Positions 360 through 5,365 of a stretch of DNA of 64,000 nucleotides are shown in pieces. A program made the translations under genes and the position numbers. Every line of letters begins with the position of its first letter. Positions within the stretch are counted from its first letter, which is position 1. Source of the DNA: Spirulina sp. (lineage in GTDB: Bacteria > Cyanobacteriota > Cyanobacteriia > Phormidesmidales > Phormidesmidaceae); NCBI GenBank assembly GCA_044070495.1, contig JBIPSI010000009.1, positions 1 to 64,000 on the forward strand. The letters run 5' to 3'. The notes under the pieces were generated by a model. The model did no database searches. It saw only the letters and a program-made list of their open reading frames with translations, and had not been told where the DNA came from.

Positions 360-2300
360 TTATTCAGCCGTCTGTTGCAGGTACAGTGCCAAGGCATCAG
401 CCGCGACCTGCCCCATGGATCGGCCTTCCTTCTCCGCCGTAGCTTGCAGGGTGAGGAAAAAGTCGTGGGACACGCTGAGGCGATGGCGACCTTCCTTGGT
501 GTGGCTGGGGGTATAGCGCAGGGGGTCGTAGGTTTCGGCAAACTGGCGCAGGGCTTCAAACCCCACCCGGTCGCAGAAATCCCCAAAGCTTTCGCCCTTT
601 TTGCGGCCATCCCGGAAGAACACAAACAGCGGCTCTAGGGTGGTTTCTAGGTCGCCATCATAGAGGCGTTCCATGTAGGGACGAGCTAACCGAGTTTGGT
701 CGGGAGAACCGCCCAGCCACAGTTGGTAGGATTCTGGCGCACTACCCACAAAGCCCAGTTCCGCCATGTAGGGACGGGCGCAGCCGTTGGGGCATCCGGT
801 CATCCGCACCACAAAATGCTCGTCGGGCAGACCCAGTTTGGTCAGCAGGGAGCGAACTCGGCCCAGGATGGTGGGCATGATCCGCTCGGATTCGGTAATC
901 GCCAAGCCGCAGAGGGGCAGGGCAGGGCAGGCCATGGCGTAGCGCACCAGGGGATCTAGGTCGGTTTCTTTTTGAATGCCGCAGCGGGTGAGGATCCCTT
1001 GCACCGCCTCCTTGTCTTCGGGCTTGATGTCGTAGAACAGAACACTTTGGTTGGGCGTTACCAGCATGGGCAGGTTGAACCGCTGCACAATTTCCCGCAG
1101 GGCGGTTTTGAGTTGCAAGCCCTCGCGATCCAGAATTCGGCCATTTTCAATGGGTACCCCCACAAACCAGTTGCCGTCGCCCTGTTCGTACCAGCCCAGG
1201 TAATCGTAGAACGTCCACTTGGGAAGCTTTTTGAAGGGCTTGAGGGGCTTGCCCAGGTAGGTTTCCACCTGCTGCCGGAAGCGCTCCACCCCCCAGTCGT
1301 GGATCAGGTACTTCATGCGGGAATGGCGACGGTTGACGCGGTCGCCGTAGTCTCGCTGGGTAGCGACGATGGCCTTCATCAGGTCGAACACATCGTCCTT
1401 ATCCACATAGCCAATTTCATCGGCCACGCGGGCAAAGGTTTCTTCCTTATTATGGGTGCGGCCCAGGCCACCTCCGGCCAGCACATTAAAGCCCTTTAGC
1501 TTACCCGCCTTGTCGGTAATCACCACCAGGGTGACATCGTGGGTGTAGGCATCGATGGAATTGTCCCCCGGCACCGTGACGGCGCACTTGAACTTGCGGG
1601 GCATGTAGTGGGTGCCGTAGATCGGCTCCGGGCTATCGGGAAACAGGGTGTTGTTGACGTTGCGCTGCCGAGCCTCCACCACTTCAGGATGCTCCTCGGA
1701 GGTGAGGAACTTCTCCCCATCCAGCCAAATTTCGTAGTAGGCCTCGGTTTGGGGCCGCAGCAGGTCGGCAATGTGGTTGGCGTAGTCGCGGGCGATCTGG
1801 TACTCAGGCCGATTTTTGAACGGGGCTGGAGGGGCCATCACATTCCGGTTCAAATCGCCGCAGGCCCCCAGGGTAGACCCCAAATTTTTCACAATCGCCG
1901 CAATGGTGGCCTTCAGGTTCTGCTTCAGCACCCCGTGAAGCTGAATGCCCTGGCGTGTGGTGGCCCGCAGGGTGTGGTTCCCGTATTCGTCCGACAGCTT
2001 ATCCAGAGCCAGATACAGCTCCGGCGCAATGAAGCCCCCCGGATTGCGGGTGCGCAGCATCATCTGATAGTCCTTCTCCTGGCCCTTGGTGCGGTTATCC
2101 CGGTTGTCCTGCTGGTAAGAGCCGTGGAACTTGAGGATTTGGATCGCCGCTTCCGAGAAGAAATTGCTATCCGTCAACAACTCGCTGGCCAAGGGCTCGC
2201 GCAGAAAGTTGCTGTTTTCCTTAATATCTTCAACCTTAGAACGCTTGGCCGAAGCAGGATTAGGGCCGGATTGAGCGGGCTTGAGAGGAGTCTGAACCAT
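360..2300 (-). CDS. sir: Ferredoxin-dependent sulfite reductase
   Basis: [23 protein letters not shown], and siroheme/4Fe-4S Cys motifs CPALPLC and TGCPNGC; start taken at ATG 2300 (MVQTP). Confidence 0.95.
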
Positions 2301-2392
2301 GGCAGCAGAAAGAAGTAAACCGTGATGAGCAGGGCCTTGGAGCCGAGGAAGATAACCCAAAGCCACCTAACCCTAGGGGGAATCAAAGCTTC

Positions 2393-2417
2393 ATACCCCG
2401 GTAAGTCGGTCGGGTTT
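2393..2417. promoter_or_regulatory. Candidate Rrf2-family (IscR/CymR-like) operator upstream of sir
   Basis: Minus strand AAACCCGACCGACTTACCGGGGTAT: a 25-bp imperfect dyad resembling the IscR type-I box, ~95 bp before the sir start. Confidence 0.35.
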
Positions 2418-2715
2418 TGGGTGAATCTTTCTGTATCGTACCACTGGATCCAACCGATCCGGTACCCAGGCTATAGAAGTTCACGCGGCTTTATGGTGCC
2501 TGTGAACTCATGGGCGGCCACGCCCCAATCCCAGCGGGTATGGTGTTAGACCAATGTGGCCCACGCCCAACTTCGCGCCCACGCCTACCCAGCAGATGCG
2601 CCCCTTCCCAATACCCTCGCGGACTGGGAACAGGCCAAAGACCTCAAAACCGCCGGGAAATACCGCCTGCTCTACGTCGCCATCATCCAGACAATTCGCA
2701 GGGGTAAATCCAGAG

Positions 2716-2775
2716 TGTCCTGAGGAATATCCTGAGGAATATTTCGGAAATGTCCTGAGGAATGTCCTGAGGACA
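2716..2775. repeat. Array of 12-bp-period pseudo-palindromes TRTCCTGAGGAA (4 good units, 1 degenerate)
   Basis: tgtcctgaggaa/tatcctgaggaa/tatttcggaaa/tgtcctgaggaa/tgtcctgaggaca. Confidence 0.9.
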
Positions 2776-2779
2776 TGCT

Positions 2780-2966
2780 AGAATAAGACCAAGGTTGAAG
2801 GGCCCAGGGAGACACCGCCCCCACTGGTGGGTTTAGCTCCCGCTGGCGAACTCCAATGCCAGAGCGGCTGACAGCCCGTCACCCCTCTACAAGAGAGGTG
2901 ATGCCAGTGCTACCACCAACATCACCCAAGGAAAAAGAAACAAACAAGTTGTCGTGATCATTTAGA
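2780..2966 (-). ncRNA. ssrS: 6S RNA (cyanobacterial SsaA/SsrS); ends approximate
   Basis: ~187-nt non-coding gap. The minus strand has GGGUGAUGUUGGUGG pairing with CCACCAGUGG..GCGGUGUCUCCC, plus UGGCAUUGGAGUUCGCCAGCGGG as recalled for cyanobacterial 6S RNAs. Helices close with G-U pairs only on the minus strand. Confidence 0.7.
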
Positions 2967-2990
2967 CCAGCGGTTGCAGTGCTGGTCTTT

Positions 2991-3560
2991 TCATTTTAAA
3001 CGCTTGGTGACCTTCCAGGCAATCTCCCCATTTTTGCGGTAGCCCGAGCGGCTGAAAATAAAACCCGCCTCAAAGAAGCGATCACCGTAACGCGCTATCT
3101 CCTGGGGCGACAGATCGATCAGATCAGCTAACTCTTGGGTGCTCAACAACCAGCCGTTACGGGCAGCGTTTTCTAATGTCTCAAAGTATCGGAGTGGGTC
3201 AGGCTGGTTAAACCCAATGCGCCCCACCACCTCAGACACAATGGCGCTGATTAATCCGCCAAAGTCATTGACCATGGGGGCCAGGTCAGAGCCGCTATCG
3301 TTTTGCCCACTGTCGCCAAAGCCCGGTTTCTGGCGCAGTCCCCGAGCCTCGATGAACTCTGGCGCACTGCCACCCTGGTTGATGAAGTTGTGCAGATCGT
3401 CCATCAGACGTAACTGCTGGTCATTGATAAAGGCTTTCTGCCCAATGCGTTCCGGGGTGATGCCCAATTGCTCCATGCGTTTGTACACCGCACTGCGCGC
3501 CAAGGCGTAGCGGCCCTGCAATTGGCCCACTGGAAAGCGATCAATCTCCCCTAGGTTCAT
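2991..3560 (-). CDS. Uncharacterised protein with two predicted HTH/winged-helix domains
   Basis: N-terminal VGQLQGRYALARSAVYKRMEQLGI (MerR/Xis-like HTH) and C-terminal LSTQELADLIDLSPQEI..AWKV. ATG 3560 preferred because the longer ORF runs through the repeat array. Confidence 0.7.
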   Translation of the reverse strand: MNLGEIDRFPVGQLQGRYALARSAVYKRMEQLGITPERIGQKAFINDQQLRLMDDLHNFINQGGSAPEFIEARGLRQKPGFGDSGQNDSGSDLAPMVNDFGGLISAIVSEVVGRIGFNQPDPLRYFETLENAARNGWLLSTQELADLIDLSPQEIARYGDRFFEAGFIFSRSGYRKNGEIAWKVTKRLK

Positions 3561-3563
3561 CAC

Positions 3564-3637
3564 TATCCTCTGGACAGTCCTCAGGATACTTCCTTCAGTA
3601 TTACCTACGGACTCGTCCTCTGGATAGTCCTCAGGAT
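3564..3637. repeat. Second array of the TCCTCWGGA motif, directly upstream of the HTH gene
   Basis: tatcctctggac-agtcctcaggat ... cgtcctctggat-agtcctcaggat; reverse orientation of the 2716-2775 motif. Confidence 0.85.
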
Positions 3638-3731
3638 AATTTTTGGCGTACTGACCATCGACGATTGCGCGCACTGACAAACAAGTCCCTCATCTGGAAT
3701 TTGAGCAGCACCTACGCTAGAACGCTGGTAC

Positions 3732-3799
3732 AGAAACCCAGTTTCTCAGCTCAAAGGTAGATGATCTCGTTAGAACAGCGATACAGAAACCGGGTTTCT
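3732..3799. repeat. Palindrome doublet AGAAACCCAGTTTCT-N38-AGAAACCGGGTTTCT (cyanobacterial REP-like)
   Basis: Two 15-bp near-palindromes at 3732-3746 and 3785-3799. Confidence 0.7.
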
Positions 3800-3889
3800 G
3801 ATCACCCCAGCCCAACGGTCGGCCCCCTAGGATGAACTGGGCCTGGTTTTCGCTATGGTAAAAGCAGCCCAGTAATTGAGGCTTCCGTG

Positions 3890-4459
3890 ATGACTCCTGC
3901 AACGAACCGCGTTCGATGGACAACGGCAGATCTGGCCCTGTTCCCCGACGATGACAGGCGCTACGAGATTATTGATGGAGAACTCATCGTGACCAGAGCA
4001 CCCAGATGGAGTCATCAGGAAGTGACTGGCCGAATCTTTGCGGCCCTCGATAACTGGTGCCAAGATACTGGGCTGGGGCGAACGGCCATTAACCCCGGCA
4101 TTATTTTCACCGATGAAGACAATGTGATTCCCGATGTGGTGTGGGCCAGCAACGAACGATTAGATACGCTGATGGATGAGGCAGAGCACCTCACCGGAGC
4201 GCCAGAGCTGGTGGTGGAAGTGCTATCCCTCGGCAAGAAAGATGAGCAGCGAGATCGCCAACTCAAACTCAAGCTGTATTCTCAGCAGGGGGTGCAGGAA
4301 TATTGGATTGTGGACAACACCCTCGGAGAAGTGCAGGTTTATCGTCGCGATCAGGCGGTGCTGACCCTGGCCATGACCCTACAATCGACCGATAGCCTCA
4401 CCTCGCCGCTGTTGCCGGATTTTTCCTGTCCCCTCAGCCGGATTTTTGTGAAGCGTTAG
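3890..4459 (+). CDS. Uma2 (DUF820) family PD-(D/E)XK endonuclease
   Basis: RYEIIDGEL, PDVVW, APELVVEVLS, KLKLYSQQGVQEYWIVD. Confidence 0.92.
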   Translation: MTPATNRVRWTTADLALFPDDDRRYEIIDGELIVTRAPRWSHQEVTGRIFAALDNWCQDTGLGRTAINPGIIFTDEDNVIPDVVWASNERLDTLMDEAEHLTGAPELVVEVLSLGKKDEQRDRQLKLKLYSQQGVQEYWIVDNTLGEVQVYRRDQAVLTLAMTLQSTDSLTSPLLPDFSCPLSRIFVKR

Positions 4460-4508
4460 TGGGCTGTGAGTCCATCTCCTTACCTACCCTAGGAGGGCTG
4501 AAATTCCT

Positions 4509-4877
4509 GTGAAACCCATAAGCCCGGAGGAAATGGCGGTGTTCAGACACCATCTGGCCCTACGCCAGCAAGCGGATCAACAGCGCCTTGCTCAACGGTT
4601 TGAGGCGGCGATGCAGGTGGTTCAAGCGGCCAATACCCTACTCAAGCAAGACTTTCAGGCCCAGGAGGTGATTCTGTTTGGGTCGCTGCTGCATCGGGAG
4701 CGGTTTCACCTGTCCTCGGATATTGACCTAGCGGTGCGTGGACTGGATCCGCTGGAGTACTTTACCGCTGTGGCCAAACTGCAAGATCTTTCCCCCTTCA
4801 AAATTGATTTGGTGCGGCTAGAGCGGTGCAAACCTAGTTTGGCGACTGTGATTGCGACGGAGGGAAAACCGCTATGA
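4509..4877 (+). CDS. Minimal nucleotidyltransferase (MntA-like antitoxin)
   Basis: LFGS-x10-DIDLAV motif; overlaps the downstream HEPN gene. Confidence 0.88.
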   Translation: MKPISPEEMAVFRHHLALRQQADQQRLAQRFEAAMQVVQAANTLLKQDFQAQEVILFGSLLHRERFHLSSDIDLAVRGLDPLEYFTAVAKLQDLSPFKIDLVRLERCKPSLATVIATEGKPL

Positions 4878-5365
4878 ATGGAGCCTATTTAGCAACAGCA
4901 GGCCGCATTCGACAAGAACTGACTGAACTGGATCAGGTTGTGGCACGGATTGAAAACATTTGGACTCGTCGCCGTCAGGAGCCTTTACCCGCCGAGCAAG
5001 ATTATTGGGTCGATGCCGTAGCGCTGAATTTGCACAGCTACTATGCCGGGGTCGAGCGCATCCTGGAACTGATTGCCGATGCGGTCGATCAGGCCAAGCC
5101 CAGTGGGGCGATGTGGCACCGAGACCTGCTGCAACAAATGACCGCCGATCTCTCCGGCATTCGTCCTGCGGTCTTGACTATCGCTACCCGCAACGCCCTA
5201 GATCGCTACCGAGGTTTTCGCCATGTGTTGCGAAATATCTACACCTTCAGTCTGGATGCTGAGCAGATTGAGCTGTTGGTGGTGCATTTACCCACCGTCT
5301 ATCTACAGGTCAAGGCTGAGCTAGAAGAGTGTGCGCGGTTTCTGGAACAATCGGCTCAGGGCTGA
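4874..5365 (+). CDS. HEPN-domain (HepT-like) toxin
   Basis: LHSYYAGVERILELIA..WHRDLL..YRGFRHVLRNIY; ATGA overlap with the MNT gene. Confidence 0.82.
   Translation: MNGAYLATAGRIRQELTELDQVVARIENIWTRRRQEPLPAEQDYWVDAVALNLHSYYAGVERILELIADAVDQAKPSGAMWHRDLLQQMTADLSGIRPAVLTIATRNALDRYRGFRHVLRNIYTFSLDAEQIELLVVHLPTVYLQVKAELEECARFLEQSAQG

Follow-up and report, generated by a model that had tools for sequence, protein, structure and literature searches.

In the SgrR-SgrS, OxyR-OxyS and GcvA-GcvB systems, a regulator gene lies beside the gene of a non-coding RNA (ncRNA) whose promoter carries the sites of this regulator, and the regulator also autoregulates. BldC, a MerR-like winged-helix protein without an effector domain, binds repeats (PMC5859096). 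In the present work we analyzed the first 64,000 nucleotides of contig JBIPSI010000009.1 of Spirulina sp. (assembly GCA_044070495.1), hereafter the window (C9:1-64000), and scanned the whole assembly of 5,313,730 bases in 74 contigs. Near the start of the window, two arrays of short paired boxes (A and B) accompany a structured RNA gene (2790..2997, + strand, about 205 nt) and the oppositely oriented gene of a 189-aa DNA-binding protein (P0001, 2991..3560, - strand, an open reading frame (ORF) with its ATG at 3560-3558). Our analyses suggested, with a probability of roughly 0.7, that these elements constitute a self-contained two-gene module, in which the protein autoregulates and gates the structured RNA.

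The boxes were found as the preliminary description had placed them, namely as four and four cores in a 2+2 layout with 12-bp spacing and opposite orientation. Array A (2718..2773, no strand) is made up of four TCCTGAGGA boxes at 2718-2726, 2730-2738, 2753-2761 and 2765-2773, forming two 12-bp pairs. In array B, the boxes TCCTCTGGA/TCCTCAGGA start at 3566, 3578, 3616 and 3628, again as two pairs with 12-bp spacing; in the orientation of the gene, the proximal pair (3566..3586, no strand) reads TCCTGAGGA-ctg-TCCAGAGGA and the distal pair (3616..3636, no strand) reads TCCTGAGGA-cta-TCCAGAGGA, and the array stands immediately before the ATG of the 189-aa gene with its two helix-turn-helix (HTH) domains, as had been noted. 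The two arrays are inverted repeats of one another over 28 nt, with 86% complementarity. When both strands were counted, TCCTSWGGA had 14 strand-matches in the window, compared with 2.40 ± 1.94 in shuffled sequences, where the maximum was 9 and none of 100 shuffles reached 14. Clusters of at least two boxes within 60 bp comprised arrays A and B only throughout the genome, in agreement with the earlier impression that such arrays do not occur elsewhere in the window, and the paired pattern TCCNNNGGA-NNN-TCCNNNGGA had four copies in the 5.31-Mb genome, whereas about 0.30 were expected from the 1257 single TCCNNNGGA sites. Because every one of these four copies lies at the locus, the box motif is not a generic repeat of the genome, which was the outcome that the proposed genome scan had been meant to settle.

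We collected 80 further protein-anchored loci from species-representative genomes, and the boxes proved to be conserved in both spacing and position. The distance between neighboring boxes over 85 loci was exactly 12 bp for 253 adjacent boxes, with minor peaks at 23-24, 36-37 and 48-49 bp. In 78 of 85 loci, whose homologs ranged from 47 to 97% identity, the last 160 bp before the ATG contained at least two strict boxes, and 78 of 80 loci had as many upstream of the RNA, compared with a density of 0.50 box per kb elsewhere in the loci. In one locus (L003, G017:C1:4774273-4777818), seven further strict boxes and many degenerate ones extend over several hundred bases past the RNA promoter, a field far larger than that of the window. 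Among distant homologs of 32-34% identity, two (L009 and L010) are flanked by different palindromes of the form GTCCA..TGGAC, and some distant homologs are flanked by other GTCC..GGAC palindromes, which suggests that the wider protein family retains GTCC/GGAC half-sites while the detail of the operator varies.

The position of the boxes relative to predicted promoters is equally regular. Array A had been described as abutting the 3' end of the RNA; it sits on the promoter, that is at the 5' end, of the + strand RNA gene. A predicted extended -10 element (TGC-TAGAAT, 2776..2784, + strand) follows the last box of array A by two bases, and the RNA core begins six bases past the hexamer. The boxes are centered at about -69, -57, -34 and -22 relative to the predicted RNA start and span roughly -73 to -18 of the promoter; no recognizable -35 hexamer is present, and boxes occupy its zone. 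A simple sigma-70 scan missed this -10 because the scan requires a -35. In the 81 distinct RNA loci, TAnnnT ending 3-14 nt before the core was found in all, the TGn extension in 76, a last box ending 4-8 nt ahead of the -10 in 76, and a hairpin with a T run downstream of the core in 74 (median 61 nt after the core).

At the protein gene, an alignment-free comparison of upstream regions pointed to a predicted -10 (AATACT, 3597..3602, - strand) between the distal and the proximal pair, and in 62 of the 73 regions with a proximal pair, this pair was preceded at 4-16 nt by the end of a -10-like hexamer (GATACT in 17, CATACT in 12, AATACT in 4, and others). The distal pair covers about -46 to -26 of the predicted promoter, and the proximal pair, since the predicted -10 lies upstream of it, falls into the predicted 5' untranslated region (UTR), at about +5 to +25. 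The proximal 12-bp pair was present in 73 of 84 distinct upstream regions; its second box was TCCAGAGGA in 69-71 of 75, ended 5-7 nt before the ATG in 67 of 73 (5 nt in the window), and in the window holds a Shine-Dalgarno-like GAGGA. The distal pair, at about -75/-63 from the ATG, was found in many loci, not all. Conserved repeated sites between -10 and start codon, the mark of an autoregulated repressor, are therefore present at the level of sequence, and with promoter and transcript start both predicted, the arrangement would be the classical layout of an autorepressor.

The RNA gene was delimited by a covariance model, covariation and a terminator search. It consists of a conserved core of ~137 nt (2790-2926, + strand), an A/C-rich variable linker (2927-2963, + strand) and an intrinsic terminator (stem 2964-2988 and T run, + strand), and the stop codon of the protein gene overlaps the T run in the window. 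A MAFFT alignment of 49 distinct sequences, scored for structure on the trimmed core, showed that P1 and P2 enclose a three-way junction with P3/P3a and P4, followed by the hairpins P5, with 0 to about 60 inserted nt at its tip, and P6; the P6 hairpin and the junction bases are invariant in this description of the fold. As many as 98.7% of 1517 cells in the trimmed core were paired, and 15 of 31 pairs showed double (compensatory) changes, compared with at most four when the partners were slid by 1-3 columns. G-U pairs accounted for 216 of the 1517 paired cells and would become A-C mismatches on the other strand, which places the RNA on the + strand. The covariance model R1 (135 positions, 31 pairs) had a single match in its own genome, at 2790-2926 (+), with 150.7 bits. 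Compensatory pairs, a predicted promoter and terminator of its own and strand-specific G-U pairs, the general properties of a structured non-coding RNA, are thus all present here. A riboswitch would be expected in the same-strand 5' leader of a coding gene; here the RNA terminator faces the 3' end of the opposite-strand protein gene.

P5 and P6 are mutually exclusive, since the strand GGUGAU is common to both, and each displays compensatory changes: UA to CG in 15 rows of the model-fitted alignment for P5, and GGUGAUG:CAUCACC to AGUGGUG:CAUCACU in Phormidesmis-type sequences for P6. This suggests that the RNA may switch between two conformations. A candidate pseudoknot between CACUGG in the P3a loop and CCAGUG in the P6 loop is 99% complementary and invariant, with no double change. 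Judging from its size, its conserved junction bases and its alternative helices, the RNA is more likely to bind a ligand, a protein or RNA than to serve as a plain antisense seed. For pairing of the RNA with the translation start of the protein gene, RNAduplex energies were no better than in shuffled sequences (median z 0.18, 81 loci). Reading the RNA as a small ORF (MPVLxPTSP...) was rejected, because 22 of 47 frames, read from the AUG in GGUGAUGCC, reach the end of the sequence examined without a stop and so extend into the terminator or beyond it, and one locus (L077) has ACG in place of the AUG. In the invariant 3' part of the core (2897-2926 and relatives), indels happen to be multiples of three (+3 ACC, and +9 in L006), and some substitutions look synonymous in the frame MPVL.PTSP.

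The preliminary description had taken this RNA for 6S RNA (ssrS) and the protein for its dedicated regulator, an identification that is refuted. What speaks for it is only the size of about 200 nt and an intergenic gene ending in a terminator. Searches with Rfam 15 (4227 covariance models) gave no family for the RNA in the window and no match at all at the gathering threshold over its 64 kb; with E up to 10 in 1500-4500 there were five chance-level matches, none of them to 6S (RF00013). The real 6S RNA of the genome lies at C5:176834-177017 on the minus strand (locus L001; 96.5 bits, E 8.5e-20), and the consensus fold of the present RNA is a junction with hairpins, unlike 6S RNA, where the 5' and 3' ends close one long irregular hairpin around a large central bubble. 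The loci of seven relatives, searched against Rfam 15 with E up to 0.1, contained only a tRNA and a chance miRNA match elsewhere in L095.

The RNA and the protein are inherited together. A nucleotide profile search (nhmmer) with window positions 2776-2999 found the RNA stretch in 82 of 85 loci whose protein is at least 45% identical and in 0 of 25 loci of more distant homologs. Starting from the protein, 81 of 84 loci contained a match to the covariance model of the RNA, in every case on the other strand than the gene, with 78 convergent arrangements and three divergent ones in which the RNA lies upstream (L071, L078 and L092). The question of whether homologs carry flanking arrays and neighbor ssrS is thereby answered in two ways: arrays and a linked RNA go with the gene at the frequencies given above, and the linked RNA is not ssrS. 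Starting from the RNA, a scan of metagenomes with an RNA-only pattern yielded 17 loci, all 17 of which encode the adjacent protein on the other strand; some of these contigs probably derive from the same organisms as the protein-anchored loci. Among 151 cyanobacterial genomes, the RNA occurred in three only, namely its own genome, G017 and G080, and the latter two also gave strong protein matches with the RNA adjacent. Record titles of the loci name Nodosilinea, Leptolyngbya, Phormidesmis, Elainella, Tildeniella, Pegethrix, Trichocoleus, Leptothermofonsia, Vasconcelosia and Shackletoniella. Homologs of 47-55% identity from other cyanobacterial families keep the box pair directly before the ATG, and the stretch of ~200 nt downstream of them is conserved far better than the protein.

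No other neighboring gene was common to the 85 loci. The suggested control of read-through into sir is unlikely, because the RNA lies on the strand opposite sir and sir adjoins the gene in one of 85 loci only, that of the window. DNA contigs of two metagenome or isolate runs matched the blocks 2686-3655 and 2712-3630 at about 97-98% identity with different flanks; these limits fit a compact self-contained module, and mixed-strain assemblies can break there for other reasons. A gene for a phospholipase-D-like protein of ~350 aa with an HKD motif lies upstream in 31 of 85 loci (for example L033, 788-1837), in a closely related Nodosilinea-type group, and is absent from the window. Individual loci also vary in copy number: L071 has two tandem RNA copies (1799-1929 and 730-859) divergent from the gene at 2091-2648, in L158 two copies of the protein gene flank one RNA, L147 and L157 have an extra upstream ORF with the N-terminal domain only, and L087 has a second, weak RNA-like match.

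The protein is labeled "hypothetical" in the source records and belongs to no family of Pfam or NCBIfam; its best Pfam match, of HTH_AsnC type, was below the cut-off (E 0.15), and MerR was not matched. In a profile search, the family numbered 1147 representative clusters with an E-value of 0.001 or less and 93 with one of 1e-30 or less, mostly of equal length. The AlphaFold2 model (mean pLDDT 73.9) comprises two domains (residues 5-75 and 120-189) with a disordered linker (77-119) between them. The modeled N-terminal domain superposes on MerR-type winged helices (RacA Z 8.3, TnrA 8.0, GlnR 8.0, TipAL 7.8, pSK1 Par 7.8); ranks 1-9 of VIA-align include RacA, TnrA, GlnR, MerR-family entries, TipAL and SoxR with Z 7.5-8.3 over residues 4-81, and Foldseek gave RacA a probability of 1.0, but with E 0.05. 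According to the model, the N-terminal domain is thus a MerR-type winged helix at the level of fold only, and a sequence search of the PDB with this domain gave nothing significant. The C-terminal domain, folded alone (pLDDT 85.7), had weak winged-helix-like matches (Z no higher than 4.0), and no similarity between the two domains was seen by hhalign (probability 2%). PADLOC and PHROGs returned weak HTH-level matches only (mad1, E 0.0029; phrog_1368, E 0.0053). With respect to a phage origin, tblastn against 50,697 phage records found no match and protein alignment against IMG/VR no relative; a 16-mer of the RNA matched 29 viral contigs, which we regard as chance because the covariance model finds no RNA on them. 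A cluster of ESM-Atlas look-alikes is rich in viral members and may offer a lead. Distant homologs of 25-40% identity are carried by 19 cyanobacterial plasmids, with inconsistent neighbors and without the RNA.

Taken as a module, the locus could work as follows. The protein would recognize the 9-bp boxes (TCCTSAGGA / TCCAGAGGA) paired on the 12-bp lattice, possibly with one domain per box; this would agree with the heterotypic pair TCCTGAGGA + TCCAGAGGA that is constant at its own gene, and also with the behavior of coiled-coil-less MerR-like proteins such as BldC. It would limit its own synthesis from the 5' UTR, since an operator pair lies between -10 and ATG over the ribosome-binding site. 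The RNA gene would most likely be repressed as well, because boxes fill -41 to -18, where RNA polymerase would make its upstream contacts, beside a -35-independent extended -10 that needs no activator, and some signal would then release the protein and allow the RNA to accumulate. The protein would be a private regulator, since the genome has such box pairs only at these two places, the RNA promoter and the promoter and 5' UTR of the protein gene itself. The preliminary proposal that the protein binds both arrays thus gains support from their operator-like placement, while its other half, an adjacent 6S RNA, does not stand; on the whole, what had been observed at the locus was partly confirmed and its interpretation partly supported.

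Several points weigh against this picture. Binding of the boxes by the protein is something we infer from position and co-occurrence only. Transcript ends are predictions, and the sign of regulation and any function of the RNA likewise belong to what we infer. Fewer than two strict boxes precede the ATG in 7 of 85 loci, and 3 of 84 loci are without the RNA: in L040 only 9 nt of contig remain beyond the gene, and L099 and L106 are real misses within 1.2-2.5 kb. As to the structure, the 500 column shuffles, none of which reached the 15 double-change pairs, ignore phylogeny and relatedness, and the alignment of 84 R1 matches in relatives (A4), with double changes in 22 of 31 pairs and 193 cells, was fitted to R1 and hence leans towards the structure. 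Related sequence occurred in one RNA library only (X20), whose two contigs fall within the protein gene (3124-3420) and do not touch the RNA, and contigs of this kind cannot show absence. Finally, the box centered at -22 in the spacer recalls MerR-type activators.

Activation of the RNA promoter is accordingly the explanation that stands nearest to the proposed module. The protein might activate the RNA promoter, by MerR-like remodeling of the spacer or by a class-II-like contact, and repress its own gene, so that synthesis of the RNA would require the active form of the protein. The MerR-type fold of the N-terminal domain and the lack of a recognizable -35, with boxes at about -34 and -22, where operators of the MerR family sit, are in keeping with this, and box phasing is offset by about 7 bp from one promoter to the other (-34/-22 versus -41/-29), which would allow opposite outcomes. 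Extended -10 promoters are, however, normally active without a -35 or an activator, and the TGn extension is found in 76 of 81 loci; besides, the protein is without the coiled coil and the effector domain of classical MerR activators. We lean, by a little, towards repression rather than activation of the RNA promoter, and consider the complete activator scheme rather unlikely. It is quite improbable that the RNA core serves as a sensor of a ligand or signal whose terminator read-through produces an antisense transcript across the protein gene. Riboswitch-controlled antisense RNAs are known, and the convergent arrangement in 78 of 81 loci, the overlap of terminator T run and stop codon in the window, the three-way junction core with invariant junction bases and the mutually exclusive P5 and P6, each with compensatory changes, would all suit such a device. 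Against it, the RNA is divergent from the gene in three loci and ends 100-700 nt from it in many, P5/P6 have no pairing with the terminator, P4 variants show no covariation with the look-alike terminator stem, and a variable linker of 30-70 nt parts the terminator from the core.

A plasmid-type origin has still less to recommend it, and we consider it highly improbable. The arrays would be iterons or a centromere-like site of an integrated maintenance module, with the protein as an adaptor for partition or replication and the RNA controlling copy number or acting as a primer. The fold resembles the centromere-binding domains of RacA and pSK1 Par, the box arrays follow a fixed lattice, one relative (L003) has seven further boxes within its 3.5 kb, and the distant homologs on 19 plasmids would agree with this origin; those plasmid homologs, however, have neither the RNA nor consistent neighbors. 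The RNA-linked subfamily is chromosomal, as seen in CP089923.1 and NZ_CP120836.1, both records of complete chromosomes, and in G017, a genome of one contig. The genome under study has one copy of the RNA, no ParA, Rep, integrase or other conserved partner is adjacent in the 85 loci, and the boxes occupy exact promoter positions. Within the preferred reading, a protein that autoregulates and gates the RNA, we tentatively raise the further idea, with the odds against it, that a new functional class of structured RNA is held here in a closed feedback loop with a private DNA-binding protein. One possibility would be titration of the protein through binding by the RNA. Another would be a sensing of some signal by means of the alternative helices P5 and P6, in which case RNA and regulator would form a two-component genetic switch of thin filamentous cyanobacteria.

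Further elements were seen around the locus. Upstream of the protein gene, two direct repeats of 32 nt (3715-3746 and 3768-3799) each contain the palindrome CAGAAACC(C/G)(A/G)GTTTCT, with a third, partial copy at 3319-3332 inside the protein gene. These repeats may belong to a short hairpin element that is dispersed. On the other side, the stretch 2607-2685 matches several contigs of the DNA runs X1, X3 and X8, with unrelated sequence on either side there; the ORFs in 2510-2720, which cover it, belong to no Pfam family, and it may be a small dispersed or conserved element. A gene for a putative endonuclease of the Uma2 family (3887-4459, E 4.6e-37) is followed by a nucleotidyltransferase / HepT-like pair (4509-4877 and 4874-5365) with overlapping stop and start, which resembles a toxin-antitoxin pair of MNT-HepT type.

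Large bacterial RNAs with many covarying helices and an unexplained function are rare and have repeatedly proved to be biochemically sophisticated. The present RNA comes with a clean handle, namely a dedicated regulator of an unannotated family, genome-unique operator pairs and strict co-inheritance across several genera, and because of these the function of the RNA and the mode of DNA recognition by the protein are directly testable. The analysis also corrects a wrong 6S annotation lead. In the literature searched, we found no description of this RNA or protein. The outline and terms of a 2026 screen of 202 cyanobacterial genomes (PMC12873609) do not include Nodosilinea, Leptolyngbya or HTH, and its supplementary tables could list a matching structure.

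Compared with described systems, 6S RNA shares with the present RNA only the form of an ncRNA that is about 200 nt long and has a promoter and a terminator to itself; it differs in model and fold, and the 6S gene of this genome lies on another contig. Classical MerR activators share the DNA-binding fold and the placement of one box near -22 in the spacer, but the protein and promoter described here have no MerR Pfam match, coiled coil, effector domain, -35 hexamer or 19-20 bp spacer. BldC, RacA and pSK1 Par are closer, being effector-less MerR-like proteins without a coiled-coil dimerization helix whose short motifs are iterated at fixed spacing, and the N-terminal domain superposes on the domains of RacA (PDB 5i41) and pSK1 Par (8csh) with Z 8.3 and 7.8. 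Unlike them, the present protein adds an unrelated winged-helix-like domain after a disordered linker of 43 residues, has no sequence similarity to solved structures, and is associated with sites that are paired near-palindromic boxes. The closest parallel in organization is provided by SgrR-SgrS, OxyR-OxyS and GcvA-GcvB, where a regulator likewise adjoins an ncRNA; there the regulator has its sites on the RNA promoter and also autoregulates, as is proposed here. In contrast to these, the genes here are mostly convergent rather than divergent, the regulator stands outside the described families and its paired sites occur nowhere else in the genome, and the RNA has a large covarying multi-helix core instead of a short seed plus terminator. 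A regulator beside a small RNA under its control is thus a known kind of system; in the literature searched, no precedent was found for either family, RNA or protein, for the proposed private two-promoter regulon or for the convergent layout.

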